Shown in pieces: positions 14,517-63,256 of a stretch of 64,000 nt of DNA (the first letter of the stretch is position 1; each line of letters opens with the position of its first letter). Where the stretch lies: assembly GCA_041484665.1 (NCBI GenBank), contig JBGPIA010000005.1, forward strand, positions 128,001 through 192,000, given 5' to 3'. The translations under genes were made by a program, and so were the position numbers. The notes beneath the pieces were generated by a model. It saw nothing but the letters and a program-made list of their open reading frames with translations, searched no databases and had not been told where the DNA came from. Source of the stretch: Candidatus Krumholzibacteriia bacterium (GTDB taxonomy: Bacteria; Krumholzibacteriota; Krumholzibacteriia; JAJRXK01).

Positions 14517-14530
14517 CGAGGAGTGGGGCG

Positions 14531-33548: not shown

Positions 33549-34328
33549 CTAGTCGAACCGCGCCTTCACGCTGCCCCACGAGGCGGCGGGAGTGGGCACT
33601 TCCCCGCACACGTCATGGTTGCGCTGCCGAAGCGCCGCAGTGAGAACAAGCTCGACCGCGCTCACGATCTGCGGCTTTACGGAGTCCAGAACGAAATTCC
33701 CGAGGACTGCGTACAGCTGCAGGCATGCGTCGGCGGATTGGAGTTCCGTCGGGCTCAGACTCAGCTGCACGCTCCCGGGGACCAGTTTGTACAGGGTGCA
33801 GGCGCCCAACGGCTCTGTGCGGACCCATGCGCCGATGGTAGCGGCGCCCAACGCGTAGCCATCGGCGGCCACCGTTCCGGAGCCGAACTCGCCGCAGAAG
33901 GGAGTCTTCTGCCGGACGGTGTGCACATCCAGGAAGAGCTGGGCCGCCGTGACCGAAAACTGGATCGAGTCCCCCGCGCTGCCAACGACGTCCACCACCG
34001 CCGCGTTCTGGCAACCGTAGAGATTGAGGGGCGCAGTGGCCGTCGCCGCCGGGGGGGCGGTAGGATTCGGCGGGGCGCAGAAGGCGAATCCGACGAGCGA
34101 CGCCTCGAACTGCACTCCGTTGAATTGGCCGCTGACCGTCCCCGTGATTTCGTTGCCCTGCAGGTTGTTGAGGGCGGTCTGCAGGTCGTCGGCGAAGCTG
34201 GCTACGGCGCTGTCCGGGGGCAACGCGCCGGCCGCGCCGCACGCTGCCAACGCCGCCAGCGCCAACGCCGCCGCCCGCAGCACCAACATGCCTCGCCGCG
34301 CCCGGGCCGCGTGTGGGAGCTTGCGCAT
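33549..34328 (-). CDS. Secreted Cys-containing hypothetical protein with C-terminal VP..SWGSVKARFD motif
   Basis: SD GAGGAG; hydrophobic signal peptide (possible lipobox LAAC); tail VPTPAASWGSVKARFD*. Confidence 0.75.
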   Translation of the reverse strand: MRKLPHAARARRGMLVLRAAALALAALAACGAAGALPPDSAVASFADDLQTALNNLQGNEITGTVSGQFNGVQFEASLVGFAFCAPPNPTAPPAATATAPLNLYGCQNAAVVDVVGSAGDSIQFSVTAAQLFLDVHTVRQKTPFCGEFGSGTVAADGYALGAATIGAWVRTEPLGACTLYKLVPGSVQLSLSPTELQSADACLQLYAVLGNFVLDSVKPQIVSAVELVLTAALRQRNHDVCGEVPTPAASWGSVKARFD

Positions 34329-34442
34329 CTCGGTCTCCTCGCTGCGCCAGGGCGCTGGAAGGGGGACCACGCTCCAGCTTGCATCGAGCATAGACGGCCG
34401 CGTGTCCCCACCGCAAGCTCGGGGCGGCCGTGCGCAGCGTCC

Positions 34443-35504
34443 TCAGGGCTCGAACGCCGTCTCCAGGCATGCCTGGGCGCCGCTGCTCAGGGTCAGCGTC
34501 GTGCCCTCTGCGACCTCTTTGTTCACCAACGCCAGCGCCACGGCGCCGGGGCCGTCGATGCGCTCGACAGCAGCCGCGATCCACCCGGTCGCTCGCCCGT
34601 CGTACAGCAGCTCATCGCCGGGCGCGGGTGCAGGGGAGAGTGCGCTTACCAGCACGCGCCGCCGCCGCACCTTGTCGTAATTGGCCAGACGCGCCACGAC
34701 CTCCTGCCCGATGTAGCAGCCCTTGGTGAAGGAGACGAACGGCGCGAGCCCGGCCTCCAGCGGATTGAGCGTGTCGCCCAGCTCGGGGCCCGGCCGCAGG
34801 CGGCCGTGCTCGATGCACCACTGGAGATAGGCGCGCTCGCCCGTGACAGCGCCGCCGCGCTCGCGCACGGCACCCGCCGCGCAACGCGCGAGCTCGCCTG
34901 CGTGCGCGGCGTGAAGCGCGACCGCATGGAGGTGCTGGGACCACGGCGCGGGCTCGCGCAGCAGCAAAGCGCCCGCGTTGCTCGCGTGGGCGAACCCGCC
35001 CGGCTGCGGCACCGGGCAGCCGAGCGCTCCTGCGACCACCTCTGCGGCCCCATCGCCGACTGCCAGGAGCGCCACCGCGTCCGGCTGCCGCTCGACCTGC
35101 ACGTCTTCGAGGATCACGTAGCGCTCGATCCACTGCGCCAGCGCCGCGCCCCGCCCCTCGCCGGCCAGCAGCCACATCCGGTCGTCCCCGGGGGCGGCGA
35201 CCGCCAGGTCCACGATGCGCCCCTTGTCATTGGTGAACACCAGCGCAGCCGCCTGGCCGGGCTGCAGGCCACGCACATCGGAGGCGCAGAGCCGCTGGAG
35301 GAGATCAACCCGGTCGGCTCCCCGGATCACCAGCAGATCCCCCGTTCCCCGGTCCCGCAGGGCCAGTCCCGACCGAAGGGCGCGCAGCCCCTCGAGCGCG
35401 GGCGCGACCTCCAGCGCCGGCCGTCCCGGCGTCTCGGCCTGGCTGCGGCCGGGCCCCAGCGGGCTACCGAACGGGGTCTGATCGCCCATCTGCTTCGAGT
35501 CCAA
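34443..35504 (-). CDS. ygfZ: Folate-binding YgfZ/GcvT-family protein (alternative ATG at 35489)
   Basis: KGCYIGQEVVAR signature; G.DR.DLLQ, KGRIVD, NPLEAGL. Confidence 0.9.
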   Translation of the reverse strand: MDSKQMGDQTPFGSPLGPGRSQAETPGRPALEVAPALEGLRALRSGLALRDRGTGDLLVIRGADRVDLLQRLCASDVRGLQPGQAAALVFTNDKGRIVDLAVAAPGDDRMWLLAGEGRGAALAQWIERYVILEDVQVERQPDAVALLAVGDGAAEVVAGALGCPVPQPGGFAHASNAGALLLREPAPWSQHLHAVALHAAHAGELARCAAGAVRERGGAVTGERAYLQWCIEHGRLRPGPELGDTLNPLEAGLAPFVSFTKGCYIGQEVVARLANYDKVRRRRVLVSALSPAPAPGDELLYDGRATGWIAAAVERIDGPGAVALALVNKEVAEGTTLTLSSGAQACLETAFEP

Positions 35505-35536
35505 CGGGTTGTGCCGCCGTCCGCCCGCGGCCTGCC

Positions 35537-35581
35537 TTGACGCCCCTCGGGGGTGAAACTACACTGATTCGTAGTGATTTC
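35537..35581 (+). promoter_or_regulatory. Sigma70 promoter of iscS with an overlapping palindromic operator candidate
   Basis: TTGACG (35537-35542), 17-bp spacer, TACACT (35560-35565); ACTAC-N8-GTAGT inverted repeat at 35558-35575. Confidence 0.6.
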
Positions 35582-35732
35582 GTGACCCGGCCGCCACGGC
35601 AGCGGGGCTGCATGGCGTCGGGCCGCCCGGTGAGCCCGCCGAGACCTCACCTGGCGCGTGGAGCACGCGGCGGGGTCAGTCGGAAGGGCGCGCCCAACCA
35701 GCGCCCGGACCATCCGGTCAGCGGAATGGATC

Positions 35733-36911
35733 ATGCACGATCGCATCTACATGGACAATCACGCCAGCACGCCCACCGATCCGCGCGTGGTCGAGGCGAT
35801 GCTGCCGTATTTCACGGAGCGCTTCGGCAATGCCGCGAGCCAGCACCTGTACGGCTGGGAGGCGCAGGAGGCGGTGGAGCGCGCCGCGCACGAGGTGGCC
35901 GCGCTGCTGGGCGTCGATGCCAAGGAGATTGTGTTCACCAGCGGCGCCACCGAGAGCAACAACCTGGCAGTCTGGGGCGCGATGGAGGCGGCTCGTGCGC
36001 GCGGCCGCCACTTCGTGACGACTGCCATCGAGCATCCCTCGGTGCTGGAGGTGGCCGCGCAGCTGCAGGAGCAGGGTTGCGAGGTGACCTACGTGCCGGC
36101 GGACCGTTCCGGCGTGGTCGACTCCGCTGCCGTGACCGCCGCCCTGCGTGCGGACACGGTCCTGTGCTCGGTGATGTGGGCCAACAACGAAATCGGGACG
36201 CTCCAGCCGGTGGAGGCGATCGCTGCCGCGTGCCGCGAGCGCGGCGTGCTCTTCCATACCGACGCCGTGCAGGCCGCAGGCAAGGTTCCCATCGCTGCCG
36301 CCGCGCGCGAGCTGGATCTCATCTCCATCAGCGGTCACAAAATGTGCGGACCCAAGGGCATCGGCGCCCTGAGCGTCCGCCGGCGCCGGCCCAAGGTGCA
36401 CCTCGCGCCGCGGACCTTCGGCGGCGGACAGCAGAGAGGGCTGCGCGCGGGCACGCTCCCCGTCCCCCTGATCGTGGGGCTGGGCGAGGCCTGCACGCTC
36501 TGCGCGCGCGAGCTGGATGCCGAGGCGGCGCGCGTGGGCGGTCTGCGCGACCGGCTGTGGAGCCAGCTCAGCGTGAGTCTGGACGGCGTGCGGCTCAACG
36601 GCGATCTCAAGCGGCGCCTGCCCGGAAACCTCAACGTGAGCTTCGCCGGCGTGGAGGCCGAGGCGCTCTTGCTGGAGCTGAAGTGGATCGCGCTCAGCAG
36701 CGGCTCCGCGTGCGCCTCCGCCGAGCACAAGCCCAGCCACGTGCTGCTCGCGATCGGGCTCAGCGCGGAAGAGGCGCACTCCAGCATGCGCTTCGGGCTG
36801 GGGCGATTCACCACCGCGCAGGAGGTCGAGCGCGTGGCCGACGCGGTGGTCCAGACCGTCACGAGGATGCGCGAGACCTCGCCGCTGGCAGGGCGGGTCG
36901 TTCGCTCGTAA
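35733..36911 (+). CDS. iscS: Cysteine desulfurase, IscS/NifS class I
   Basis: YMDNHAST, FTSGATESNN, HTDAVQ, SGHK (PLP Lys), SSGSAC, RFGLGRFTT. Confidence 0.93.
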   Translation: MHDRIYMDNHASTPTDPRVVEAMLPYFTERFGNAASQHLYGWEAQEAVERAAHEVAALLGVDAKEIVFTSGATESNNLAVWGAMEAARARGRHFVTTAIEHPSVLEVAAQLQEQGCEVTYVPADRSGVVDSAAVTAALRADTVLCSVMWANNEIGTLQPVEAIAAACRERGVLFHTDAVQAAGKVPIAAAARELDLISISGHKMCGPKGIGALSVRRRRPKVHLAPRTFGGGQQRGLRAGTLPVPLIVGLGEACTLCARELDAEAARVGGLRDRLWSQLSVSLDGVRLNGDLKRRLPGNLNVSFAGVEAEALLLELKWIALSSGSACASAEHKPSHVLLAIGLSAEEAHSSMRFGLGRFTTAQEVERVADAVVQTVTRMRETSPLAGRVVRS

Positions 36912-36926
36912 CCGCAGGAGGAACCG

Positions 36927-37256
36927 ATGATCGTCGTGACTGACAAGGCGGCCGCCGCGGCCCTGGCGGCTCTGCGGGAAGAGGGCGCCGACCCGTCGCA
37001 GCGGTTCCTGCGGGTGGCGATCCAGGGGGGCGGCTGCTCCGGGCTCAACTACAAACTCAACTTCGACTCCCAGCCGCGCGAGGGGGACGAGGTCCTGACC
37101 CTCGGCGAGCTGCGGGTGGCCGTCGACCCCAAGAGCCTGCTCTTCCTCGAAGGCATGACGCTGGATTACTCGGCGGGTCTCAACGGCAAGGGGTTCGTCT
37201 TCAACAATCCCAACGCCACGGGCACCTGCGGCTGCGGGCAGTCGTTCAAGGTCTGA
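36927..37256 (+). CDS. iscA: A-type Fe-S carrier (IscA/ErpA/HesB family)
   Basis: GGGCSG and [14 protein letters not shown]. Confidence 0.92.
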
Positions 37257-37457
37257 CCGCCCAGGGCCACGGCAATTGCGCGACCCATCTGGGGCGCAGA
37301 CCAACGCCGGGCACGACAGGAGGCGCGCGGATGCGGGCCCCCTGCGCGTATGTGGTCCTTGCGTGCCCCGCGAGCGGGTGAAACAATCATCGAGGCCACC
37401 GGTCGGCTCCCTCTCGCCGGGGTGCACAGTCGACGTACCCAGCCCAATGGAGTGACC

Positions 37458-39224
37458 ATGCGATTCTCGGTACGCCATCAGCGACTGCACGAGGCGGCCG
37501 CCGACGTCCTGGTCGTCGGCGTCCATGGCGTGACCCAGTCTCCCGACGGGGAGCTCGCCTCGCTCGACCGCCGCGCCCGCGGCGGGCTGTCGGAGGCTTT
37601 CGGCTTCGGCGATTTCAAGGGGAAGGAAGGCCAGCTGGCCTGGGTGCCGGTGCAGCGCCTCCCGTTCAAGCGCGTGCTGTTGGCCGGCCTGGGAGCGGCG
37701 AAGGACCTGAAGACCGAAACGGTCCGCACCGCGATGGGGACCGTGTCCATAGCGGCGCGCCGTGCCGGCGTGCGCCGGCTGGCGGTGACGCTCCCGACTG
37801 CCGCAACGTTCGAACCGGCCGTCATGGCCTGCGCGATCGCCGAAGGCCTCGTGCTGGGCTCGTACGATCCCGAGGCCTTCAAGACCAAGGGCCGCGCAGA
37901 GAAGGGCCGCCCCGCGGACCGCGTGCTCCTGATCGTGGCCGACACCACAGACGTCCCAGGGGTCCAGGAAGGCGCCCGCCGCGGCGCAGCGTATGCGCAC
38001 GCCACCAACTTCGTCCGCGATCTCGGCAATCGCCCGTCCAACGTGCTCACGCCGCCGCAGCTCGCGGCCGCGGCGCGCGAGATGGCGGCGCGCTACAAGG
38101 GGAGCGTGACCTGCACCGTGTGGGGTCCGCGCGAGATGGAGCAGCACCGCATGGGCGGCATCCTGGGCGTGGGGCGCGGTAGCGCCGAGCCCAGCCAGTT
38201 CATCCAGCTCGAGTACCGGCCGAGGGGTGCAGGCGCCTCCCTGCCAAAGATCGCCTTCGTGGGCAAGGGCCTCACCTTTGATACCGGCGGGATCAGCCTC
38301 AAGCCGGCCGCCAGCATGGACCTGATGAAGATGGACATGTGCGGAGCGGGAGCCGTGCTGGGCGCGATCCAGATCCTGGCGGAGCTGCAGTTGCGCGTGC
38401 ACGTCCTGGGCTACATCGCCGCCGCCGAGAACATGCCCGACGGCAGGGCGATCAAGCCAGGCGACCTGCTCACGATGATGAACGGGATGACAGTCGAGGT
38501 GAACAACACGGACGCGGAGGGTCGGCTGGTGCTGGCCGACGCGCTGCACCACGCCACGCGGCAGAAGCCGGCGTTCATCGTGGACGTGGCGACGCTGACG
38601 GGCGCCTGCCAGATCGCCCTGGGTGACGCCGCCTGCGGGCTCATGAGCGAGGACGACGATCTGGTCGCGCTCATCGAGCGCGCGGCGCTCGACGTCGACG
38701 AGCCGGTCTGGCGGCTGCCGCTGAACGACTCCCATCGCAAGCGGATGGAGGGCCACGTCGCCGACCTGAAGAACACGGGGGCCAAGGAGGGCGGGGCGCT
38801 GACTGCGGCGGGCTTCCTGAGCTACTTCACGCGCGGGTCGCGGTGGGCGCACCTGGACATCGCGGGCATGGCGTGGGCCGAGGAGACACGCCCGTGCTTT
38901 CCCAAGGGCGCGACCGGCTACGGGGCGCGGCTGCTGGCGGCCATCGCCGAGCAGGCAGCGGCGAGCCTGCCGTCGGCGGTGAGCGCTCCGGCCACGCGGC
39001 GCAAGTCGCCGGCCCCGCGAAGGAGAGCCGCAGCGCGCTTGAAAGTCGCCGCGAAGGACGCGCCGAGAGCGACCTCGAAGGCGGCCCCGAAGGTCGCGCG
39101 GAAAGCAGCCCCGGACGCCGCGCGGAAGGCAGCCCCGGACGCCGCGCGGAAGGCAGCGCCGGCCGCCCCCGGCGCAGCTACCCCCGCCCGACGCGGCCGG
39201 GGTAAACCTGCAGCGCGGCGGTGA
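37458..39224 (+). CDS. pepA: Leucyl aminopeptidase (M17) with a basic Lys/Ala/Pro/Arg C-terminal tail
   Basis: VGKGLTFDTGG, MKMDM, NTDAEGRLVLADA, ATLTGA, WAHLDIAG. Confidence 0.93.
   Translation: MRFSVRHQRLHEAAADVLVVGVHGVTQSPDGELASLDRRARGGLSEAFGFGDFKGKEGQLAWVPVQRLPFKRVLLAGLGAAKDLKTETVRTAMGTVSIAARRAGVRRLAVTLPTAATFEPAVMACAIAEGLVLGSYDPEAFKTKGRAEKGRPADRVLLIVADTTDVPGVQEGARRGAAYAHATNFVRDLGNRPSNVLTPPQLAAAAREMAARYKGSVTCTVWGPREMEQHRMGGILGVGRGSAEPSQFIQLEYRPRGAGASLPKIAFVGKGLTFDTGGISLKPAASMDLMKMDMCGAGAVLGAIQILAELQLRVHVLGYIAAAENMPDGRAIKPGDLLTMMNGMTVEVNNTDAEGRLVLADALHHATRQKPAFIVDVATLTGACQIALGDAACGLMSEDDDLVALIERAALDVDEPVWRLPLNDSHRKRMEGHVADLKNTGAKEGGALTAAGFLSYFTRGSRWAHLDIAGMAWAEETRPCFPKGATGYGARLLAAIAEQAAASLPSAVSAPATRRKSPAPRRRAAARLKVAAKDAPRATSKAAPKVARKAAPDAARKAAPDAARKAAPAAPGAATPARRGRGKPAARR
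39052..39170 (+). repeat. 24-bp coding tandem repeat (KAAPDAAR-like, about 5 units) in the PepA tail
   Basis: AA(A/G)GCAGCCCCGGACGCCGCGCGG repeated; peptide KDAPRATS-KAAPKVAR-KAAPDAAR-KAAPDAAR-KAAP. Confidence 0.8.
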
Positions 39225-40410
39225 GCGCCCGCATCGCGTCGCGCAGCTTGCCTTCCTCCAGCACGTAGGCGATGCGCGCCTCGTCGCGACCCAGCCCCGG
39301 CGTAGCGTAGAAGCCGTCCGCGGGAGCGATCATCACCGTCTGGCCGTCCAATTCGAAGTCGCGCAGCAGGAACTCGGCGAAGGCGTTCGCGTCGTCGACC
39401 GGCAGCTTGACGCACAGGTAGAACGCGCCTTCCGGCTTGGGCACCGTGACGCCGGGGGTCGCAGCCAGGGCCGCATACACCGTGTCGCGGCGGCGCTGGT
39501 ACTCAGCGATCACCTCGGTCATGTAGCTGGGCGGGACCTCATTGAGCGCCGTGCCGAGGAACTGCGCCAGGGTCGGCGGGCAGAGGCGCGCCTGTCCGAA
39601 CTTCAGGATCGCCCCCAGCAGCTCGCGGTTGCGCGTCACGATGTTGCCGAGGCGGGCGCCACACAGCGAGATGCGCTTGGACAAGCTGTCCACCATGATG
39701 GCGCGGTCTTCCAGCCCGGGCAGCGTGAGCACCGACCGCTGCCGGCGGCCGTCGTAGGCGAACTCGCGGTAGACCTCGTCACACACCAGGTACAATCCGC
39801 GGTCGCGGCAGATGGAGGCGACGCGCTCCATCTCTTCGTCGGTATAGACCGTGCCTGTCGGATTGTTCGGCGTGCAGAGCAGGATGGCGCGTGTGCGCGG
39901 CGTGATCGCACGCTCGATTCGCTTGCGCTCCGGCAAGTGGTAGCCGTCCTCGGCGTGGGTCGCCACGGGTACGGGGCGCACGCCCATCATCGAGGCGAAG
40001 CCGTTGTAGTTGGTGTAGAACGGCTCGAACACGAGCACTTCGTCGCCGGGGTCACAGACGGCGCCCAGCGTGAACAAGATCGCCTCGCTGCCGCCGGTGG
40101 TGACGAAGATCTCTTCGGCGGCGACATCGATGCCACACCGCTGGTAGTAGATCCGCAGCGTCTCGACGAACTCGGGCAGCCCTTGCGACGGGCCATAGGG
40201 GATGTTGTGCGCCTGGAAGGCAGCCAGGCGCTGCAGGACCACCTGGGGCGTCGGGATATCCGGCTGTCCGATGTTCAACGCGTAGACTGTCTTGCCCGCG
40301 GCGCGGGCGGCGGCGGCCAGCGGCGCCAGCCGCCGGATGGGCGAGGCAGGCATCTCCTGCGCGCGCTTGCTGAGGGAGAGACGCTGGCTCATGCGGGCCT
40401 CCGGCTGCAT
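39178..40410 (-). CDS. PLP-dependent class I/II (aspartate-like) aminotransferase
   Basis: LNIGQPD, TTGGSEA, PNNPTG, DEVY, SLSKR...GARLG; SD GGAGGAG; alternative start at 40392. Confidence 0.92.
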   Translation of the reverse strand: MQPEARMSQRLSLSKRAQEMPASPIRRLAPLAAAARAAGKTVYALNIGQPDIPTPQVVLQRLAAFQAHNIPYGPSQGLPEFVETLRIYYQRCGIDVAAEEIFVTTGGSEAILFTLGAVCDPGDEVLVFEPFYTNYNGFASMMGVRPVPVATHAEDGYHLPERKRIERAITPRTRAILLCTPNNPTGTVYTDEEMERVASICRDRGLYLVCDEVYREFAYDGRRQRSVLTLPGLEDRAIMVDSLSKRISLCGARLGNIVTRNRELLGAILKFGQARLCPPTLAQFLGTALNEVPPSYMTEVIAEYQRRRDTVYAALAATPGVTVPKPEGAFYLCVKLPVDDANAFAEFLLRDFELDGQTVMIAPADGFYATPGLGRDEARIAYVLEEGKLRDAMRALTAALQVYPGRVGRG

Positions 40411-40608
40411 CGGGTCTCCTCCATCGCTGGCCGCGGCCTGCAACGCGGCGATCCACCCCAACAAGATGGTGCGCAGCAGGGCGCGAGTCTAGCAGAGGCT
40501 CGTCCGGCCGTCAGGTGGCGCAACGCCGGGTCGGGCAATGCAGCGCGGGAGATGGCGGCGCCGCGCGGCCGGTCGGTGCAGCGACGGCTCGGGCATCGCC
40601 GCACCCGG

Positions 40609-41535
40609 TCAGGCCGTCTCGCTGCGCGGGTCGAAGGCGTCGCGCAGCCCGTCGCCCAGGAAATTCAGCGACAGCAGCGTGAGCCCCAGGGCCAGCCCGG
40701 GGAACAGCACCAGCCACCAGCTTGTGCGCACGGCGTTGATGGCGGCGGCGCCTTCGCTGGCCAATGAGCCCCAGCTGGCCGCCGGAGGCTGCACGCCCAG
40801 GCCCAGGAAGCTCAGGAACGCCTCCTCCAGCATCACCGCCGGAATGGTGAGGGTCGCGTAGACCAGCACCGGGCCGAGCATGTTGGGCAGCAGATGCCGC
40901 AGCACGATGCGCCGGCGGGGGACTCCCAGGGCGCGCGCGGCCTCCACGAACTCGCGGTCCTTCAGCCGCTTGATCTCCCCGCGCACGATGCGGCTCATGG
41001 TGAGCCACTGCACGGCCCCCAGCGCCACGAACAACAGCACCAGGCTCTGGCCGAAGTACGCCACCAGCAGGATCACGAAGAACATGAACGGCAAGCCGTA
41101 CAACATGTCGACCACGCGCATCATGATATTGTCGAGCCGCCCGCCGGCCCAACCCGCGATCGTGCCCCACGTCACGCCAATCAGCAGACTCACCAGAGTC
41201 GCCACCAGGCCCACCGCCAGGCTCAGGCGGCCGCCGTAGAGCACCCGCGTGTAGAGGTCGCGCCCGTTGGGGTCCGTGCCGAACGGGTGGTGCAGGCTGG
41301 GAGGCTGATACTGGCCCGCCAGGTCCTGGGCGGAGAAACCGTAGGGCGACAACAGCGGCGCGGCGACCGTCGCCACCACCACCAAGCCCAGCACGCCGGC
41401 GCTCACCGTGGCGGCCGTGTTGTGGCGCAGGCGGCGCAACGCCTGGCGCCAGGGGCCCGGCGACGCAGCGCGCGCAGGCGTAGCGGCGGCCGGGACGGCG
41501 ACGGCTTCGCCGCCAGCGTTGGGCGCGGCCGCCAT
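40609..41535 (-). CDS. oppC: Oligopeptide ABC transporter permease
   Basis: HPFGTD.NGRD, EFVEAARALG, RHLLPN, FLGDGLRDAFDP. Confidence 0.92.
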   Translation of the reverse strand: MAAAPNAGGEAVAVPAAATPARAASPGPWRQALRRLRHNTAATVSAGVLGLVVVATVAAPLLSPYGFSAQDLAGQYQPPSLHHPFGTDPNGRDLYTRVLYGGRLSLAVGLVATLVSLLIGVTWGTIAGWAGGRLDNIMMRVVDMLYGLPFMFFVILLVAYFGQSLVLLFVALGAVQWLTMSRIVRGEIKRLKDREFVEAARALGVPRRRIVLRHLLPNMLGPVLVYATLTIPAVMLEEAFLSFLGLGVQPPAASWGSLASEGAAAINAVRTSWWLVLFPGLALGLTLLSLNFLGDGLRDAFDPRSETA

Positions 41536-42452
41536 CAGCCCAGCTCCACGCGCGGGTCCAACGCGCTGTAGAGCACGTCGACCAGCAGATTGAGGGCGAT
41601 CAGCAGGGCGCTGTAGAGCAGGACGGTTCCCATGGCCAGCGTGTAATCGCGATTGAGCGCTGCATTGACCAGGAAGCTCCCCAGCCCCGGGACCGAGAAG
41701 ATCTGCTCGACCACCACGCTGCCCACCAGGATCGAGGCGGTGGCCGGGCCCAGGTAGCTGATCACCGGCAGCAGCGCCGGCCGCAGCACGTGCTTGAGGA
41801 CGACCTGGCGCTCGGACAGCCCCTTGGCGCGCGCAGTGCGCACGAAGTCCTGCCCGACGACCTCCAGCGCTCCGGCGCGCATCAAGCGTGCGATGGTCGC
41901 GGCCCGCAGCGCCCCCAGCGTCACGGCAGGCAGGAGCAGCTGCTGCAGGCTGCCGATCCCGCCCACGGGCAAGAGCCGCAGCTGGAACACAAACACGATG
42001 ATCAGCAGCGGCCCGAGCACGAAGTTGGGCACGCAGATGCCCAGGAGCGCGATCCCCATCGCCAGGCGGTCGGGCCAGCGGTTGTGGCGCAGCGCGGCGA
42101 TCAACCCCAGCGGGATGCCTGTGACGAGCGCCATCGCCAGCGCGAGCACTCCCAACGTCAGCGACACGGGGAACGCCTGGGCGATGATCTCGCGGACGCT
42201 CCAGCCCACGTACTTGTAGCTGGGGCCCAGATCGCCGTGCAGCAGCCCGCCGACGTACAGCGAGAGCTGCTGCGGCAACGGCTGGTGCAGGCCGTAGCGC
42301 GCCTCGAGGTTGGCCTGCACGGCCGGCGGCAGCGCGCGCTCCGTGTCGAAGGGCCCGCCCGGGGCCAGCCGCATGAACAGGAACGACCCCACGACGATCG
42401 CCAGCAGAAGCGGGATCGTGGAGAGCAATCGGCGCGCGAGGAACGATCTCAT
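41535..42452 (-). CDS. oppB: Oligopeptide ABC transporter permease
   Basis: APGGPF, GDLGPS, DFVRTARAKGL, NRDY, LDPRV. Confidence 0.92.
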   Translation of the reverse strand: MRSFLARRLLSTIPLLLAIVVGSFLFMRLAPGGPFDTERALPPAVQANLEARYGLHQPLPQQLSLYVGGLLHGDLGPSYKYVGWSVREIIAQAFPVSLTLGVLALAMALVTGIPLGLIAALRHNRWPDRLAMGIALLGICVPNFVLGPLLIIVFVFQLRLLPVGGIGSLQQLLLPAVTLGALRAATIARLMRAGALEVVGQDFVRTARAKGLSERQVVLKHVLRPALLPVISYLGPATASILVGSVVVEQIFSVPGLGSFLVNAALNRDYTLAMGTVLLYSALLIALNLLVDVLYSALDPRVELG

Positions 42453-44245: not shown

Positions 44246-44304
44246 CACGCGGTGCCGGTGGGGGCGGGGCCGGCGGCGCATTGTAGCGCAGCCCCGGGCG
44301 GACC

Positions 44305-45642: not shown

Positions 45643-45790
45643 GGGCGCCGGCGCCTGTTGCGCCGACGCGCGCGGCGGTATCTTCCATTCGCCTCCGCCT
45701 CGGGGAGCGTGTATAACCTCCCCCTGGAGGCGCGCCGCGCACGGCGCGCCACCTCCACGCCTCTGCCTGCCTCCCAGGGAGCCCGTGTCG

Positions 45791-49781: not shown

Positions 49782-49902
49782 TTGCGGGCGGCGCAGGCCG
49801 GCTGGATGGCGTCCGGCGGGCACCGGGCACGGCCTGCCCGTCGCCCGGATCCTCCACGGCAACGACGAAGCCCGAGGGCGGGATGAGGCCGCCAGCCGGC
49901 CC

Positions 49903-50400: not shown

Positions 50401-50411
50401 CGGCTCCTTCA

Positions 50412-52087
<1,676 letters not shown>

Positions 52088-52091
<4 letters not shown>

Positions 52092-52780
52092 GACGCGCCC
52101 CCCGCGCCCCCCGCTCCGCGCGGCCGCCGCGGGGGGGCCGCCGGTCCGTCGGTGGGGCGTGGCCGCGCCGGTCCCGTGACCGCGGCCTGCGGCTCGCTCG
52201 TGCGGGGCGGCCGCAGCGTAACTGTTGCCAGCTCGTCTGCGCTTGGGGGCGGCAGGTCGGCGGGGTCGGCCAGGCGCAGCAGCACGGTGCCGCCCTCCAC
52301 TTTCTGGCCCGGCTTGACCAGCACCTCGCCCACAACCCCGGCACGGGGCGCGGCGAGCTCGTTCTGCATCTTCATCGCCTCGAGCACGATCAGGGGCTCG
52401 CCGGCCGCCACGCGCTGGCCCGGCTGCACCTTGATCGTCACCACCAGCCCGGGCATCTCCGCACGCAGCTCCGAGCGCCCCTCGTGCGTGCGCCGCGCGC
52501 CGCCGGCGGCTGCGGCCAGCTCGTCGAGCACCTCGACGTGCTCGCGCTGACCGTTGAGGAACGCGGCGCGCAGCCGCGGGCCCAGGCGCGCGATGTCCAC
52601 CAGGAACATGCGTCCCTCCTGGCGGATCGACACGCTGCGGCCGCCATCCAGGATGCGCAGGTCCTCGAAGCTGGACCCCCGCGCGGACTCCACGCGTACG
52701 CGGCCCGCAGCGTCGCGCACCACGGTTGCCCGGGCGTCCAGGCCGACGCGGCGGATGTGGTAGGTCTTGCGCAGCTCCAT
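52088..52780 (-). CDS. Biotin carboxyl carrier protein of acyl-CoA carboxylase
   Basis: [16 protein letters not shown] biotinylation motif; low-complexity C-terminal tail. Confidence 0.9.
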
Positions 52781-52831
52781 GATGATCTCGCCTGTCTTCG
52801 AAGGCTCACGGGCCCCAAACGGTCCGCACGC

Positions 52832-54535: not shown

Positions 54536-56088
54536 AGCGGGATGTTGCCGTGCTTCTTGCGGGGGAGCTCAGCGCGCTTGTTGCGCAGGCTGCGCAGGGC
54601 GGCGATCAAGCGCGCGCGCGTCTGCGCCGGCTCGATGATGTCGTCGAGATAGCCCAGGCTGGCCGCCACGTACGGGTTTACGAAGGTCGCCTGGTACTCG
54701 GCGATCTTCTGCTGGCGCACGGCCTCGGGGTCGGCGGCGGATTCGATCTCACGCCGGTAGAGGATGTTCACGGCCCCATCGGGGCCCATCACCGCCAGCT
54801 CCGCCGTCGGCCAGGCGACGTTCCAGTCCCCGCGGATGTGCTTGGAGCTCATGACGTCGTACGCGCCGCCGTAGGCCTTGCGGGTAATCACCGTCAGCTT
54901 GGGTACGGTGGCCTCGCAGTAGGCGTAGAGCAGCTTGGCTCCGTGCTTGATCAGCCCGCCGAACTCCTGCTGCGTGCCGGGCAGGAAGCCTGGCACGTCC
55001 TCGAAGGTCACCAGCGGGACGTTGAAGCAGTCGCAGGTGCGCACGAAGCGCGCGCCCTTGAGGCTGGCATCGATGTCCAGCACGCCGGCCAGCTGCCGGG
55101 GTTGATTGCCGACGATGCCCACCGCCTGGCCGCCCAGGCGCGCGAATCCCACGACGATGTTGGGGGCGTACTCGGGATGGATCTCGAAGAACTCCCCGTC
55201 GTCGACCACCAGTCCAACGACATCCTTCATGTCGTACGGCTGCCGGGGATCGTCGGGGACGACACCGTTGAGGCGCGACTCCCGCCGGTCGACCGGATCG
55301 CGGCAGACCGTCACCGGTGGGTCTTCCAGGTTGTTCTGGGGCAGATAGCTCAGCAGCTTCTTCACCAGCAGCAGGCACTGCTGGTCATTGGCCGCGCGCA
55401 GGTGGGCCACGCCGCTCTTGCTGTTGTGCGTGCGCGCGCCGCCCAGCTCCTCGGCGGTCACCTCCTCGTTGGTGACCATCTTGATCACGTTGGGGCCCGT
55501 GACGAACATGTGGCTCGTGCCGTCCACCATGATCGTGAAATCGGTGATCGCGGGGCTGTACACCGCGCCGCCGGCGCAGGGCCCCATGATGGCGCTGATC
55601 TGGGGCACCACGCCCGAGGCCATGGTATTGCGCCAGAAGATCTCGGCGTAACCCGCCAGGCTCTGCACGCCCTCTTGGATGCGCGCGCCTCCGCTGTCGT
55701 TGAGGCCGACCAACGGGCAGCCATTCTCCAGCGCCTGGTCCATCAGGCGGCAGACCTTCTCGGCGTTGGCCTCGCTCATGCTGCCGCCAAAGACGGTGAA
55801 GTCCTGGGCGAAGACGTAGACCTGCCGTCCGTCGATCTGCCCGACGCCGGTCACCATGCCGTCACCGGGCGGCTGGTTGGACGCCATCCCCAGATCGGTG
55901 CAGCGGTGCGTCACGAACACGCCCGTCTCCTGGAAGCTGTCCGGGTCCAGCAGCAGGTGGATGCGCTCGCGCGCCGTGAGGCGGCCCGAGGCGTGGATCT
56001 TATCGATCCGCTCCTGGCCGCCGCCGAGCATGGCCAACTCGCGGTGGCGGTTCAGCTCCGCGAGCCGCTCCTGGAACTTTTCACCCAT
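54532..56088 (-). CDS. pccB: Propionyl-CoA carboxylase carboxyltransferase (beta) subunit
   Basis: [55 protein letters not shown]. Confidence 0.93.
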
Positions 56089-56377
56089 CGTGTGGTCCGG
56101 TTCCCCGGTTTCTGGTTGGTCCACGGCGCAGGTCCACGAGAGGCCGCCCATGGGTCCGAGGTGGTGGACGGCCGCGTCGAGTCCGCGCCAGCGCGGGCCG
56201 CGGGTCACGCGGACGTGCGGGCGGGACAGGGCTCTCCCGCTTGGCCCGCGGCCGTCACGCGCGGCCCTCGGCGGCTCGAACGCCAAGAATACCAAGGGGA
56301 ATCGGTGCCGCCCACCGGCAAGTGAGCCCGTCCCAGCTTGCGAGGCGGATGCCCGCCCCGGGGGACGCGGTGGGGTT

Positions 56378-59167
56378 CTACTCGACCTGCAGCACCGAGT
56401 TGCGCCCGCCGAACCCGTCGGAGACCGCCGCGGGGTTCTCCGGGTCGGCGATCCAGTGGTCGCCGTCGATGGCGAGCTTGTACTCGAAGCGACCCGGGCC
56501 CAGGCGTACCTCGGCGCGCCAGCGCCCGTTCCCCAGGGCGGCCATGGGCGTCGCTGCGGGAGACCAGCCGTTGAAACTCCCCACCACCGCCACCGTCCGG
56601 GCAGCCGGGTTGACGTAGGTGATGGGCACCAGGCGCACCTCCGTGCGTGCCCGGTTCTCCGGGGTCGCGGGCCGCGCGGGCTGCCCGCTGATGTAGGCGT
56701 AGCCGTCCATGAGGTGCTCGAGTTCGTTGCTCACCGAGTGCAGCGGCCCCTGGTCGACGTCAGCGAACTGCAGGCGGAAGCGGGCGCGGCGGCCGGCGCC
56801 ACCGGCGACCTTCACCAGCACGTAGTTGGTTCCGATCGCGAAGCCAGCGTCGGCTTGGGTCTGCCGGCGAAAGCCCTCCAGCCGCGCCACCTCCTCACCG
56901 GCGATCCGCACCAACGCGGGGGAGTCGCACTCCAGCCGGACGGTGGCTTCGCGCGTGGAGGTGGTCAGCGCCGTGAGGGCGTACCACACGCCAGCCGGCC
57001 CGGACGCGTCGGCCAGGGTGATCCAGCCGTCCTCCTCCAAACGTGTCGATGGCAGGTGCTGCCAGTGCGCCGGCCCCGCTGGCGCCGGGTAGCCCTCCCC
57101 CAGATCGATCGCTCCGTCGGGGCCCTGGCGCGCGTTGATGGCCGCGGCCATACCGGTCCAATCATTGGGCCCGGCCGCTGGGCTCTCGAAGGGACCGATC
57201 CACAGCCACCGGAAGTGGACCGGCACCTGCGTTTCCAGAGTCGAGATCAGGCGCGTCGCGTCGTGGAAGCGCCACTGCACCGCGACCAGCCCCGGCGCGA
57301 GCAACGGCGGCGGCGCGAGCTGCAACGTCCAGGTCCGCTGCTCGCCCGGGCCGAGCGTGAAGTCGGCTTCGCTGGCGGGACTCACCACCCACTCGGTCGG
57401 CGCCATCAGCTCGAAGCGGCCAGCCTGCTCGTTCTCGACCTGGTTGGCGATCTCGACCTCGCAGACGGTCCGCGGCGGGCTGGCCTCCTCGGCCACGATC
57501 CGGACGCTCGCGCGCAGCGCCTCGACGACGGAGGTGCCGGGCGCGTAGGCCGGGCGCCCGTGGGGGCCGCGCAGGACCAGCCACCAGAATCCGGTCCGGT
57601 CGGGCAGCGGCGGGAGCTGCCCGCGCAGCTCCAGGGTGTCTTGCAGCACGACCGCCACGGGCGAGGCCGCCATGAGCGTCGTGCCGTTGGTCCAGGTCGC
57701 CGACCAGCTCCCTTGCGCCGCGTTGACAGCGTCGGCGCCGGAACGGTACCGCACGTGGAGCAGCGGGCTGGCACCTCGCGCCGTCACGTGCGGGAGTACT
57801 TCCGCCGCGTAGGCCGCGTCCACCGTCGGGCGCAGCAGCAGCTGGATCGCGTCCTCCGCCAGGCGGTCCAGCGCGTCGCCCATCCACTGCGCGAGATCCT
57901 CGTCGCGCCAGCCGAAGGCCGCGGCCTTCGCATCGCCGTTGGGCGAGCGGGTGGTCATGCGCCCCGCCGCGAAGCGGTTGCGGCGCTCGACCGGATTGAA
58001 CGACCGCCACTGCTCCGCGCGGGCGACCAGCACGTGGGCCAGCGAGTCCGCGCCCGTCCCCGCGCCTGGATCAGGCCGCTGCATCAGTGCCAGCGTCTCG
58101 TCGCGCTCCAGCGGCTGCAGCACGAGCGCGCGCGACAACAGCTCCACGATGGACCGGGTGCGCAGCAGCGGCTGCCACCGCCCCGGCCGCGCCGGAGCCG
58201 TCACCGCCGTTACGGTGGCGCCCGCGCTCGTCGTCGCGCCCCCGCCCAAGCCCTTGCTCGAGACGCCCCCCGTCGCGGCCCAAAGCCGCAGCGGGACCCG
58301 ATCCCGATTGGGCAGGCCGTGGGCGCGCAGGGCTTGATCGGTCAGCTCGACGAGCTCTGGATCGTAGAGGGCGGCGATCGCCGTGCGCAGCAAGGCGGCC
58401 GTCTGCTCCGCGGTGAACAGACTGAGCTCGGGATGCCGCGGCCAGTCGGCCTTGGGGTCCAGCCGCCGGATCGCGCGGCCGGTGCGCTGGGCCTGCGAAA
58501 CGCTGACATCGTTGCCGACCAGCAGCGACTCGGCGGTCGCGGTCGCCCGCGCGTGCACCGTGGGCGCCTCGAGCGCCAGCGGCAGGAGGCAACCCAGCGA
58601 CAGCGGCTCGTCGATCAACCGGCCCGCGGTGTCCAGCGCGGCGTACCCGCCAGTCTGCGGATCGTACAGCTGCGCCATCATGTGGCGGTGGACGAGCGCG
58701 CGCTCCCGCCACCAGACCAGCGCGTCGAAGAAGTACTCCCGCCGCGCGGCCATCTCGGCTAAGGCCTCCGCGTAGACCAGCTGCAATCCCGGCAGGACCG
58801 CTGCGGTCCGGCACCCTTTCAGACCTGCAGCGCGCAGCACGCGTGCGTCCTCGCGCCACAGCCCGCCGTTCTGGGGGTCGAGGTGGCGGCCCAGCCAGAA
58901 ATGCCACCGCGCCAGAGCGCGGTAGGTGTTCTCATCGGGGGGCAAGCCGGCCCGCTCGGCCTCGGTCACCGCCGCCGCGAGCAGCGGCAGCTGGGCCGTG
59001 TTGAAGCTGCGGGCCATGGTGTCCAGGTCGCCGGCAGCACCCTGCGCGCTGGTGACGAAGAATGGCCGCAGGGCAGAGAGATCCTGCGCCGGCGCCGCCA
59101 CGGCCGCACCGCTGAAGAGGGCCAGCGCCAGGGGAATAGCTGGGAACAGACGGATCGCGCGCGCCAT
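56378..59167 (-). CDS. Large secreted multidomain carbohydrate-active-like protein with a C-terminal glycogen-binding (CBM48/AMPK-beta-like) domain
   Basis: Signal peptide; C-terminal V.VVGSFNGW...W...L.PG..EYK..IDG..W..DP.NP....DGFGG.NS; NEW3-like and jelly-roll-like segments. Confidence 0.75.
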
Positions 59168-59268
59168 TATCGGCCCCAAGTGGCTGCAAGCGGCAGGCCA
59201 GAGGCCCTTGTCTCCACGTAGGTTTGCTGCTTGGATGGGACGTCACCCCCCATCCCCCCGGAGCCACC

Positions 59269-60450
59269 GTGAGTGCATCGCTTCCGCCTCTGGCCCAGGT
59301 TGCCGCTGCCGCGCGTACGCCGATCGGACGCTACCTGGGCACCCTGTCCGATCGCACCGCCGTGGAGCTGGGTGTTCATGCGGTGACGGCCGCCCTGGAG
59401 CGCGCCCAGGTGGAGCCGCGGTCGGTGGACCTGCTCGTGTTCGGGCTGGCCCGCGGGGCCGGCACCGGACCCAACCCGGCGCGGCAGGTGAGCGTGCGTG
59501 CTGGACTTGCGCACACGACGCCGGCCTACACCGTGAACATGGCCTGCGCCAGCAGCAGCCAGGCGATTCTGGAAGGCGTCGCGGCGCTGGCGCTGGGCAG
59601 GGCGCGTCGCGTGGTGGTGGGGGGGATGGAGAGCATGAGCAACGTCCCGTACCTGCTTCCCAAAGCGCGCACGGGGTATCGCATGGGCCACGCGCCACTG
59701 GTGGACGCCATGTACCAGGACGGTTTCCACTGCCCGCTCGCCGATCAGCTCATGGGCGCCACCGCCGAGACGCTGGCCCGCGAATACGGGATCAGCCGGC
59801 GCGAGCAGGACGCCTACGCGCTGGAGAGCCAGCGGCGCGCCGGGGTGGCGTGGAGCGCGGGGGAGTTCAACGATGAGATCGCGCCGGTGCCGGCCGACGG
59901 CCCGCGGGCGGGTCTGGACCGCGACGAGCATCCGCGGCCCGACACCACCCTCGAGGCGCTGGCCAAGCTGCCGGCCGTGTTCGCCCAGGACGGCACGGTG
60001 ACGGCCGGCTCGAGCAGCGGCCTCACCGATGGGGCGGTGGCGCTGGTCCTGGAGCCGCCCGGCGCGCGCCGCGACGCTCTGGCGGAAATCGTCGATTACG
60101 AGGTGGCCGGCGTGGATCCAGCGCGCATGGGGATCGGTCCGGTGCCCGCCACGCGGCGGCTGCTGGCGCGCACCGGCCTGCACCTGTCCGACATCGGCCT
60201 GGTGGAGCTCAACGAGGCGTTCGCAGCGCAGGTGCTTGCCTGCGCGCGTGACCTCCAGCTCGATCTGACCCGCACCAACGTCCGGGGAGGCGCGATCGCG
60301 CTGGGCCATCCCATCGGCGCCACCGGCGCGCGCATCACCACGACCCTCATCCACGCCATGCGTGACCGTGGGGCCCGCCTGGGGCTCTCCACCCTCTGCG
60401 TGAGCGGTGGCATGGGCGTCTCCATCCTGCTGAGGCAGCCCGTCAGCTGA
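59269..60450 (+). CDS. Thiolase (acetyl-CoA acyltransferase), second paralog
   Basis: [33 protein letters not shown]. Confidence 0.93.
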
Positions 60451-60748
60451 GGGCTGGTGCCTGCGGACTCCTCCGCAGGCCGCTGCGCGGGTTCACGCTC
60501 CCAAGCGCTTCCCGTCGCGGGGCCACGGCGCGCCGCGCCCCTGCGATCCTCACGCACCCATGCCGCTCGGCGCGGTCACGACGTGGCAGACCGCCTGGAG
60601 CAAGCGCCGTGCAGCCGCCACCGTGCAGCGCGAGCGGCGTCTGGTGGGCGAGCGCCCGGCGGCGCATGCGCCTCTCCCTCGCGGGGCCGCCGCTGCGATA
60701 GACTCCATGTCACGCGAATCGAGCTCGACACCTCCAGGAGACGCATCG

Positions 60749-61822
60749 ATGTTCGCACCCCGATCGTTGGCCGCGGACGCGCGGCCGGGTCGCACGCCGC
60801 TGCTGCCTGCCCCGGCCCTGCCGCTGGCCTGCGCCCTGCTGCTTGCGCCGGCCTTGCTGCTCGCGCCCGCGCTGAGGCCGGCTCCGGCGCTCGCCTCCAA
60901 GCCCGTCGATGCCAAGGTCCTCGCGGCCAAGGCGGTCGTGCAGGACGGCGGCTATGCGCCGCGGCCAGGCGCGTTCGCCACGGTCTTGACCGAGAGCGAG
61001 CCCAACGACACTCCGGCCACCGCCAACCCCGTTGCCGTCGGGGAGTCGATCGAGGCGGCGCTCACCAGTGGCGACGTGGACTGGTTCCGCGTGACGGCAA
61101 CTGCCGGTGAGTACTTCACCCTCTCCACCTCCGCGCGCGACGGGAGCTTCACCGACACGGTGATGCGCGCCGTGGGGTCCGATGGCGCTACCCAGCTCGC
61201 GACGGACGACGATGCGGGCGCCGGTCTGTTCTCCGCGCTGGAGCATTTCCTCTGCCCGGCCGGGGGAGTCATCTACGTCGAGGTCCGGCACTTCAGTCAA
61301 AGCGGGCAGGGCGCGTATCTCTTCGGCGTCGAACCCGGCAGGCCGCCTCTGCCGGCTCCCGCCAACGATGCCCGCGGTGGCGCCGTCGTCGTCCAGTGCA
61401 CTAGCGTGACCTCCGGCACCACTCGCGGGGCGGCCAGCGACGTGAGCAACGACGACGTCGCATGCGTTCCCTACGCGCCCAACGGGGGCGACGTGTTCTA
61501 TCGCGTGGCAGTTCCTTACAGCTACCAACTCACGGTCCAGGCCTCCACGGCGACCAGCACCGACCCCTCGCTTTACCTGCTCGTGGACTGGGGGGCGGGG
61601 GCCCTCACCTGCATCGCCGGCTCCGACGCCGGGTTCGTCGACGAGGACGAGTTGGTCAGCTTCGTCAACGACCACCCGGGTGATCCCCCGATGGTCACGA
61701 TCGTCGTGGACAGCTGGAGCGCGCGGAGCGAGGGCGAGTTCACGTTGGCGGTCTCGTGCGAGTTCCTGGTCCCCATCCAGCAGTCCACGTGGGGCGCGCT
61801 GAAGGCCGTATACGGGGAGTGA
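60749..61822 (+). CDS. Secreted protein with a PPC-like beta-sandwich, a Cys-rich domain and a C-terminal TWGALKAVY motif
   Basis: SD AGGAG; signal ending ALA; ESEPND, DVDWF, DT.M, DDDAG.GLFS; ND...GTT...DVFY; tail VPIQQSTWGALKAVYGE*. Confidence 0.8.
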   Translation: MFAPRSLAADARPGRTPLLPAPALPLACALLLAPALLLAPALRPAPALASKPVDAKVLAAKAVVQDGGYAPRPGAFATVLTESEPNDTPATANPVAVGESIEAALTSGDVDWFRVTATAGEYFTLSTSARDGSFTDTVMRAVGSDGATQLATDDDAGAGLFSALEHFLCPAGGVIYVEVRHFSQSGQGAYLFGVEPGRPPLPAPANDARGGAVVVQCTSVTSGTTRGAASDVSNDDVACVPYAPNGGDVFYRVAVPYSYQLTVQASTATSTDPSLYLLVDWGAGALTCIAGSDAGFVDEDELVSFVNDHPGDPPMVTIVVDSWSARSEGEFTLAVSCEFLVPIQQSTWGALKAVYGE

Positions 61823-61929
61823 GCCTGCGCCGGGAACCCCGCCGGCGCTCCGTTTGGGTCTGCAGCTGTTGCTTGCGCGGTTGCCCCCGCGGTTGCCCGC
61901 ACCCGCGGCTGGGCTCCCCCTGATTCTGA

Positions 61930-61992
61930 TTATGTGATGGGCCGCCGGAGCATCCGGCGGCCTTCATAACCCTGCCCGGACGGGCGTTTTTT
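61930..61992 (+). terminator. Tandem hairpins; the second is followed by a T-tract (putative intrinsic terminator)
   Basis: GGCCGCCGGA-GCA-TCCGGCGGCC (61940-61962), then GCCC-GGAC-GGGC followed by GTTTTTT. Confidence 0.5.
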
Positions 61993-62245
61993 CCCTCGCA
62001 TCGGCACTTGGCAGTTGTTCCGCGAGCGGGCCGCCCTCTATACTGGCCATGCCTTCTCGTGGGACCCCGGTCCAGTCCGCGTACCTGAAGTCAGGTCGTT
62101 CTCGCCGAGGAGGTGGACATCCGAGCCAACGGCTGGAAGAGGCTGCGACACCGCGCGCCCGCACCGGATCCACCCGCTGGATCCCCTCCGGCTTGTCAGC
62201 TCGCCGTGGGCCCCTGATCTGATTTCCCACCGACCGGAGGTGTTC

Positions 62246-63256
62246 ATGCGTGCATCTTGGTCACGGTTGATCCTCGCAGCGCTGTGTCTGGCTCTATTTG
62301 CGACGGCCGCGTTTGCCGAGGACGAATTGCAGTTCAAGGCCCGTATCGACAAGCTGGCGGAAGCCGCTCGGTTCACGCCGGATTTCAGCATTCCGCTGGC
62401 CGTCATCAACGAGACCGAGCCCAACAACTCGTGCGCCGCGCCCGATCCGGCGGCCATGCTCGCCGGCCAGATCAACGCGACGCTCTCACCGGCAGGCGAC
62501 GAGGACTGGTTCTACTTCAACGGCGCGGCCGGCCAGTGCCTGACGCTGGCCACCGCCTCGGTGGCCGGCAGCACGACCGACACGCAACTCTACCTGTACG
62601 ACGCAGCTAGCTGTGGCAGCCCGGCTGCCTATCTGGTCTGGGACGACGACGCAGGCCCCGGCCTGTTCTCGTTGATCAGTGCCTTCCCGCTGCCCGCGGC
62701 GGGCACGTACTACGTCCGGGTCAAGCACTACAGCGCCTCGGGGACGGGAGCCTATCTCCTCACGACAACGCTGGCTGCTTGCCCCTCGGCTCCGCCCAAC
62801 GACCTGTGCGCCCATGCGATCCCGGTGCACTGCAACTCGCTGGTGCAGGGCACGACGGAGAACGCGACCAACAACATCACCGAGAATGTGTCCAACCCGT
62901 GCGTCATCGGTTCCTCGGCCGCCGGACCGGACGTGTTCTACTCGATCTGCGTGCCCAACGGCGTCCAGCTCCAGACGGTGACGACTCCGTTGTCGATCTG
63001 GGATCCGGCGATCTGGTTCGTTACCAACTGCAATGATGCGACGACCTGCGTCGCCGGGACCGATGTGGGATTCTCGGGCGATCCCGAGACTCTCGACTGG
63101 ACCAACGACACCGGCGCCGAGGTCTGCCTGTACATCGTGCTGGACAGCTGGACGGCCAGCCAGGTCGGTGCCTTTACCATCGAGATCGGCTGCCAGCAGG
63201 TCGTCCCGGACGTCAAGTCGAGCTGGGGCACCATCAAGGCGCACTACAAGAACTAG
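62246..63256 (+). CDS. Secreted paralog of the preceding gene with a C-terminal SWGTIKAHY motif
   Basis: SD GGAGG; signal ending AFA; ETEPNN, DEDWF, DDDAGPGLFS, PNDLC, GPDVFY; tail VPDVKSSWGTIKAHYKN*. Confidence 0.85.
   Translation: MRASWSRLILAALCLALFATAAFAEDELQFKARIDKLAEAARFTPDFSIPLAVINETEPNNSCAAPDPAAMLAGQINATLSPAGDEDWFYFNGAAGQCLTLATASVAGSTTDTQLYLYDAASCGSPAAYLVWDDDAGPGLFSLISAFPLPAAGTYYVRVKHYSASGTGAYLLTTTLAACPSAPPNDLCAHAIPVHCNSLVQGTTENATNNITENVSNPCVIGSSAAGPDVFYSICVPNGVQLQTVTTPLSIWDPAIWFVTNCNDATTCVAGTDVGFSGDPETLDWTNDTGAEVCLYIVLDSWTASQVGAFTIEIGCQQVVPDVKSSWGTIKAHYKN

Follow-up and report, generated by a model that had tools for sequence, protein, structure and literature searches.

Three exported proteins encoded in a 64,000-nucleotide stretch of a Candidatus Krumholzibacteriia genome (assembly GCA_041484665.1, contig JBGPIA010000005.1, positions 128,001 to 192,000, or C5:128001-192000 in our contig numbering; hereafter the window) end in the same short C-terminal tail. 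In the whole genome (5.45 Mb, 69.5% GC, 93.65% complete) this tail closes dozens of otherwise unrelated proteins, and we are highly confident that it is a real envelope-targeting signal. On balance we favour the reading that it is a portable docking or sorting peptide, most likely read by an outer-membrane module, encoded outside the window, of a β-barrel and two lipoproteins named here LipA and LipB. The initial annotation of the window had proposed a signal with an unknown cognate machinery; what is new here is a concrete candidate reader for it.

A short tail at the C-terminus of exported proteins

The three tails of the window are as follows:

33549..33599, minus strand: tail 1, VPTPAASWGSVKARFD followed by a stop codon, profile score 40.6
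61769..61822, plus strand: tail 2, VPIQQSTWGALKAVYGE followed by a stop codon, profile score 38.4
63203..63256, plus strand: tail 3, VPDVKSSWGTIKAHYKN followed by a stop codon, profile score 42.8

All had been recognized in the initial annotation and are real, at these positions and with identical internal spacing; a cysteine stands 3, 4 and 4 residues ahead of the valine in tails 1, 2 and 3, respectively. The proteins that carry them each start with a hydrophobic export signal, in agreement with the N-terminal signal peptides claimed for them:

33549..34334, minus strand: exported (possibly lipo-) protein of about 246-261 residues, a singleton among tail bodies by sequence
60710..61822, plus strand: exported PPC-domain protein (PF04151 at 6.7e-7), start uncertain (60710 or 60749)
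62246..63256, plus strand: exported PPC/DVUA0089-like protein, paralog of the gene at 60710..61822 (PF04151 at 3.2e-10; NF038127 below cut-off)

The last two are PPC-domain paralogs of each other. The first had been described as unlike both, and it was indeed a singleton when tail bodies were compared; it matched no Pfam or NCBIfam family and contains a possible lipobox (LAAC).

Among the 78,516 open reading frames of a six-frame translation of the genome, the strict expression V.{5}[ST]WG.[VLI]K..[YF] matched 25 at most 6 residues from the stop and one other at 8 residues, a disparity which argues that the tail is not due to chance. An iterated tail profile (threshold score 22) matched 76 frames, every one 0-14 residues from the stop, and a gap separates these from the best internal matches, which scored 19.9. 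In called genes, the 9-column core reached a score of at least 14 at terminal positions 67 times and internally 5 times. The resulting enrichment, 311-fold, is inflated by the training of the profile on terminal hits. The 76 include ten frames that the gene finder did not call, as well as a few short fragments. Across the proteome, the tail is a terminal feature.

The core can be written [ST]-[WF]-G-x-[VLI]-K-x-x-[YF], with the K conserved in 70 and the G in 66 of the 71 rows used to train the profile, and with an overhang of 0-14 residues beyond the aromatic position. Of the motif as first drawn, this core held, whereas the cysteine and the VP did not hold as defining parts: only 14 of the 76 tails have Cys at -3/-4, and 61 have [VIL]P ahead of the core, other phyla having other leaders. 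Thus, VP is lineage-specific and Cys lies outside the core.

The 71 bodies of sufficient length for comparison fell into 47 BLAST families, which bears out the claim of a portable tail on unrelated proteins. By a crude test, signal peptides were present in 54 of 60 called tail proteins and 149 of 202 proteins with a type IX secretion system (T9SS) C-terminal domain (CTD), as against 1383 of 3448 other genes; the anticipated co-occurrence with exported N-termini was thus observed. Pfam names on the 67 tail proteins scanned were of surface type, where there were any at all, and the cargo domains include LamG, DUF642, CHRD, LTD, PPC, β-helix, cohesin, CBM20, alginate lyase and GSDH. Neither Pfam nor NCBIfam has a model that covers the tail, an ESM Atlas search with a window tail returned no usable match, and full-text literature searches, with subscription papers and supplements outside their coverage, found nothing on the tail or on the barrel–lipoprotein module. 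None of the 76 tails contains a transmembrane (TM) helix above a Kyte–Doolittle hydropathy of 1.6, the highest 19-residue value in the last 45 residues of the tail proteins being 1.51 (median 0.57), and the tail is accordingly unlike signals built from a TM helix and a basic tail, as the initial annotation had held. Its suggestion of a short helix fared less evenly: an AlphaFold model of a like segment in LipA (below) agrees with it, while in a crude test the hydrophobic periodicity of the core had its maximum at 150-160 degrees rather than at 100 and did not single out a helix.

The initial annotation had named Eisenbacteria, Poribacteria, Latescibacterota and Krumholzibacteria as carriers of similar tails, and a scan of one genome per species found them in all four: at least 120 loci carried the tail (some 6 of these 120 appear to be chance frames), and the 80 titles listed included 23, 7, 5 and 2 from these lineages, respectively. 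In the phylum of the source genome, where at most 70 candidates were scored per genome, the profile matched 120 of 121 genomes, with 0-63 matches per genome. Of 25 Eisenbacteria-phylum genomes, 18 had 23-80 matches each to a core pattern and the remaining 7 had 2-9, compared with 0-5 in controls. For the Poribacteria phylum (31 genomes), a shorter pattern gave 30-174 matches per genome versus 6-56 in the control. Leaders differ between phyla, that of the Poribacteria tail being AV[ED]xxGK.

One family of eight tail proteins in the source genome starts with D-[IL]-G-[VI]-F-F-D (C5:3-3248, C7:115333, C8:31795, C15:60723 and others). Some members lie in tandem ahead of a C25 peptidase gene, and a domain of this type also occurs inside large CTD proteins.

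The tail and type IX signals occur on the same protein bodies

The source genome encodes SprA, PorU adjoining PorV, two more PorV-like barrels, five C25-family peptidases and about 214 terminal type A-like CTDs. GldM (TIGR03517) gave no match in this genome or in 13 others outside the Bacteroidota phylum, these genomes being incomplete and GldK, L and N not having been searched. The available text of PMC9127263 gives the canonical T9SS component list only.

Tail and CTD alternate on the same bodies. The proteins at C28:39420 and C28:34770, one ending in the tail and the other in the CTD, form the closest pair, with 67% identity over 198 residues, and further pairs were found on C15, C7/C11 and C5. 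The two signals are almost mutually exclusive in this genome, a check that the initial annotation had called for: one protein has both, and the core is present in 0 of 213 CTD linkers. A CTD profile built from this genome overlapped 1 of 76 tail frames, where a CTD-like domain precedes the tail. The genome's only dual-signal protein (C29:20010-20588; L049:1014-1589, minus strand) consists of a signal peptide, a stand-alone CTD/FlgD-like domain and the tail, and is possibly an adaptor. Cargo size also differs, with a median of 220 residues (maximum 421) for tail proteins and 726 for CTD proteins (p=3e-19), as expected of a separate route.

Two links between the signals were not retained. Derivation of the tail from a CTD linker was rejected, since 139 of 209 linkers but only 18 of 76 tails contain a loose T-x-V; VP is present in 49 of the 209 linkers. 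Adjacency to CTD genes was seen for 16 of 66 tail genes versus 50 of 642 size-matched controls, a rate no higher than that at which CTD genes adjoin one another (57 of 208), and is not taken as a sign of cognate pairing.

The tail therefore resembles the type A CTD (TIGR04183/PF18962; PorV shuttle, PorU sortase) in pairing a Sec signal with a C-terminal signal, in occupying the same slot on the same cargo bodies and in co-occurring with SprA, PorV and PorU. It differs in that the type A CTD is a β-domain of 43-82 residues with motifs B/D/E, whereas the tail is a 9-residue core without them; tail cargo is small, the tail is found where GldM is undetected, and its phylogenetic distribution ties it to an unrelated barrel–lipoprotein module. 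No tail scored with the type A CTD models (TIGR04183/FlgD_ig) in the NCBIfam or Pfam scans.

Two further clusters in the genome (C3:70000-85000, L054; C12:21400-34000, L061) each carry a TonB-dependent receptor, a divergent-CTD protein and a PorV-like barrel in a row, followed on C3 by ExbB/ExbD genes, TolC and a GWxTD protein. These TonB-type clusters are a possible energizer for a T9SS without GldM.

A barrel–lipoprotein operon as candidate reader

A lipoprotein match in Cloacimonadota, in which the tail follows a W-x-D motif, led us to trace its relatives in the source genome, where they belong to a three-gene operon:

C9:87315-90738 (L202:5316-8739), outside the window: barrel gene (703 residues), then lipoproteins LipA and LipB, between rsmA and secD/secF

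The AlphaFold model of the 703-residue protein (predicted local distance difference test (pLDDT) score 83) is a 28-strand β-barrel with no plug, residues 1-94 being unresolved. Its structural matches are generic only: MtrB (6r2q_B) came first (template-modelling score 0.47, Z 17.8, root-mean-square deviation (rmsd) 8.5-9.4 Å, about 10% identity), tied with CymA and SprA, and the protein has no Pfam, NCBIfam or PDB sequence match. MtrB and LptD, the latter with the lipoprotein LptE, are large barrels that a partner fills. Like them, the 703-residue protein is predicted to form a large barrel without a plug of its own, and it is encoded with lipoprotein partners; unlike in their case, the partners are predicted NTF2-fold lipoproteins rather than a cytochrome or LptE. 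LipA is modelled (pLDDT 92) with an NTF2-like fold and a C-terminal helix at residues 188-196. The best fold match, 3rob_A (Z 14.2, rmsd 2.1 Å over 121 residues), has many ties at 5-14% identity, and the predicted NTF2/SnoaL-like α+β cone is an assignment of fold that implies no function. LipB is a LipA paralog that lacks the C-terminal helix. A further LipB paralog, 52% identical, has gained a tail (C23:7637-8293, L041) and adjoins an integrase-like gene and CTD genes.

Gene order is conserved between phyla. LipA follows the barrel in 30 of 30 loci of the source phylum, with LipB next in 29, and the same order was seen in 10 of 10 genomes of two families that a single query had missed and that were retested (f2, f3). 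In the Eisenbacteria phylum, excluding one unpublished genome (G175), LipA was found in 23 of 25 genomes and followed the barrel in 19 of 23 loci; the Zixibacteria-labelled phylum showed this order in 11 of 12 LipA loci. Word-indexed homolog searches were shallow (5 matches for the Cloacimonadota LipA and 2 for the barrel), and a profile search returned 432 representatives.

LipA itself links the module to the tail. LipA C-termini such as SWSELKGQF and SWAELKNAYR fit the cargo core, and 37 of 74 LipA ends scored above the 99.9th percentile of a control set (3,646 C-termini), compared with 5 of 68 for LipB, all five from the Eisenbacteria phylum. Structure prediction of a complex of barrel residues 95-703, LipA, LipB and a 30-residue window tail scored the tail at 0.57, 0.60 and 0.58, with unrelated partners at 0.00 and 0.00; a control with the barrel replaced reached 0.81, so the score is unspecific to the four-chain set and is not used here for or against binding.

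Module and tail are also co-distributed. In the Bacteroidota phylum (that of G129), LipA was found in 46 of 121 genomes, mostly together with LipB, and the barrel elsewhere in 19 of 24 LipA-positive and 0 of 10 LipA-negative genomes. Tail counts in this phylum are at background, yet one sequence, TWGSIKA[ML]F, recurs at the end of a single-copy protein of about 135 residues, which consists of a signal peptide, a beta-rich domain and the tail, its most conserved part. The full-length protein (TWGxIKxxF end) was present in 44 of 45 LipA-positive and 0 of 20 LipA-negative genomes. GldM scored above cut-off in 0 of 46 LipA-positive and 9 of 20 LipA-negative genomes. The small protein belongs to a family that has no name and is labelled Ignavibacteriota/Bacteroidota; of 8,000 proteins scored, 4,394 reached E≤1e-15. 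Its beta-rich domain occurs in many large proteins that are probably CTD cargo. Neither it nor LipA has a solved relative by sequence. Its gene (L359-L374, for example L366:5901-6287; V[RK]RTWGSIKA[ML]F end) often lies upstream of a maf-like or pyrimidine-synthesis gene. The Zixibacteria-labelled phylum repeats the pattern with a different small secreted body ending in TWGKIKALFK, found in 2 of 2 LipA-positive and 0 of 3 LipA-negative genomes; 12 of 41 genomes of this phylum are module-positive. One Bacteroidota-phylum genome (G198), with a SprA score of non-Bacteroidia type, has no match to LipA, the barrel, the tail protein or GldM, and may represent joint loss of module and tail protein.

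Several observations weigh against the module as reader. Poribacteria are rich in tails, yet the barrel profile gave one weak partial match in 21 of their genomes and the LipA profile matched only weak NTF2 lipoproteins (18 of 21 genomes, E 1e-8 to 4e-4). In the Poribacteria protein L401 the tail stands directly ahead of a CTD, which shows that a terminal position is not required and that the tail may function once export has taken place. The helix of the source genome's own LipA is degenerate (score -6.4), and mutual-information covariation in LipA is too shallow (effective sequence number 64) to place it. The barrel does not adjoin LipA and LipB in Bacteroidota-phylum genomes, and the split in that phylum probably follows class boundaries rather than many independent events; the co-distribution profile is thus confounded by lineage. 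Finally, genome G125 of the Zixibacteria-labelled phylum has a tail at a contig edge and no LipA or barrel match.

The arrangement in L401 was the one clear case among 30 sampled Poribacteria CTD proteins, with 1-2 degenerate cases besides; a strict tail-then-CTD pattern in DNA was found in 0 of 5 Poribacteria genomes, and five others gave one out-of-frame chance match. Among the Poribacteria NTF2 lipoprotein matches listed, three end in a tail-like segment. A conserved NTF2/SnoaL lipoprotein is flanked by a DUF5683 gene on one side and a chain-length-determinant-like gene on the other (L305, L310, L315-L317), and a paralog with a tail-like end (L303, L304, L311, L312) precedes a tail gene in L303, L304 and L311.

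Elsewhere in the window, three loci were noted, and an Rfam search of the window gave no match:

11082-15559, plus strand: cluster of GldA/GldF/GldG-type ABC transporter genes that also encodes a DUF4340 protein; GldM had no match in this genome
19754-22256, minus strand: gene for an extracytoplasmic function-type sigma factor, then a Ser/Thr kinase with a DUF4384 domain
31557-32687, plus strand: chromate-transporter-like gene (family named by eye) in frames of 97 and 268 residues, split by a frameshift or a sequencing error

Models of tail function and significance

In the model that we favour, the tail, a flexible leader followed by [ST]-W-G-x-hydrophobic-K-x-x-aromatic and probably a short helix, would act after Sec export and direct small proteins of a single domain to the cell surface or the outer membrane. 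It would bind the NTF2 lipoprotein pair by mimicry of the C-terminal helix of LipA, the simplest docking place being a matching empty site on LipB. Cargo would then cross the outer membrane through the barrel, which we regard as a tentative possibility, or, slightly less probably, through the SprA pore of the GldM-less T9SS after hand-over. A bolder version, which we consider possible but doubtful, is an undescribed secretion system of the deep Fibrobacteres–Chlorobi–Bacteroidetes (FCB) lineages, in which the NTF2 lipoprotein pair captures small folded proteins by the 9-residue helix and a dedicated plug-less barrel exports them, in parallel with a motor-less T9SS. Ignavibacteria-type genomes would then keep one ancestral substrate, and Krumholzibacteria and Eisenbacteria would have expanded to dozens.

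Among other explanations, the tail could be a T9SS signal of a third, minimal kind that SprA or a PorV/PorP-like shuttle recognizes directly. The module would then be a separate envelope complex, with LipA merely bearing this signal as cargo. SprA-like genes were present in all tail lineages tested, including 18 of 18 Poribacteria, where they are divergent and below cut-off and no barrel is detectable; the source genome has the SprA, PorU, PorV-type and CTD complement described above, and tail and CTD are interchangeable on the same bodies. According to the available text of PMC12618676, distinct T9SS signals use distinct shuttles, and the type B CTD (TIGR04131), with PorP/SprF shuttles, is a precedent in which another class of signal has an outer-membrane receptor of its own alongside the same translocon. 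That signal, however, is a folded domain with gene-linked cognate shuttles, whereas the candidate barrel is a single-copy protein of 28 predicted strands that matches no Pfam or NCBIfam family. Short CTDs are known from Prevotella intermedia, and the shortest in the available text of PMC11969387 are three-stranded sheets of 43-55 residues with motifs B/D/E, none of which the tail has. Moreover, SprA was found in 12 of the 17 LipA-negative Bacteroidota-phylum genomes tested, and the tail protein in 0 of 20. We consider a minimal T9SS signal unlikely.

Somewhat less probable still is that the tail is a non-covalent retention anchor that keeps proteins in the periplasm or on the surface, docked on the lipoprotein module or another envelope protein, and is not itself an export signal. 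The tail upstream of the CTD in L401, the source-genome protein that combines a CTD fold with the tail, the tails on LipB paralogs and the variable overhang past the aromatic residue would fit such an anchor. Yet most tail proteins lack a second outer-membrane signal, even though they have paralogs that are T9SS cargo, and a single-copy receptor for about 70 ligands would suit transit better than permanent anchoring. A processing or degradation tag (for a PDZ protease or a sortase-like transpeptidase) or a receptor-free membrane-binding helix is very improbable: the tail does occupy the slot of PEP-CTERM and CTD signals in a genome with five C25-family peptidases, but it has no TM helix, its distance to the C-terminal carboxylate is not fixed, no scissile motif is invariant across phyla, the near-invariant G and K suggest a protein partner, and nothing in our analysis supports the cleavage or transpeptidation raised in the initial annotation.

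PEP-CTERM, GlyGly-CTERM and LPxTG signals consist of a motif, a TM helix and a basic tail. Like these signals of exosortase, rhombosortase and sortase substrates, the tail is short, C-terminal and shared by many small exported proteins that are otherwise unrelated, and some tail bodies weakly resemble PEP-CTERM families (PepA, FDP_fam, choice-of-anchor; below cut-off). It differs in lacking a TM helix or basic cluster, and exosortase (PF09721) had 0 matches in the 93.65% complete genome. The tail therefore lies outside both T9SS CTDs and TM-containing CTERM signals, yet resembles them in its position and in the cargo that it marks.

By means of the tail, thousands of hypothetical proteins can be annotated as envelope-targeted, and a portable tag of such short length would be useful as a tool for export or display. 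The operon of a barrel and two NTF2-fold lipoproteins, conserved across several FCB phyla, is of interest even if unrelated to the tail. The retention of the module with one tail protein in Ignavibacteria-type genomes, which presumably include cultured relatives, makes the question directly testable. If the favoured model is true, a nine-residue tag and a three-gene outer-membrane module would constitute a targeting route for up to 1-2% of genes in several widespread uncultured phyla, and would be relevant to the working of type IX-like systems in those FCB lineages where GldM is not detected.

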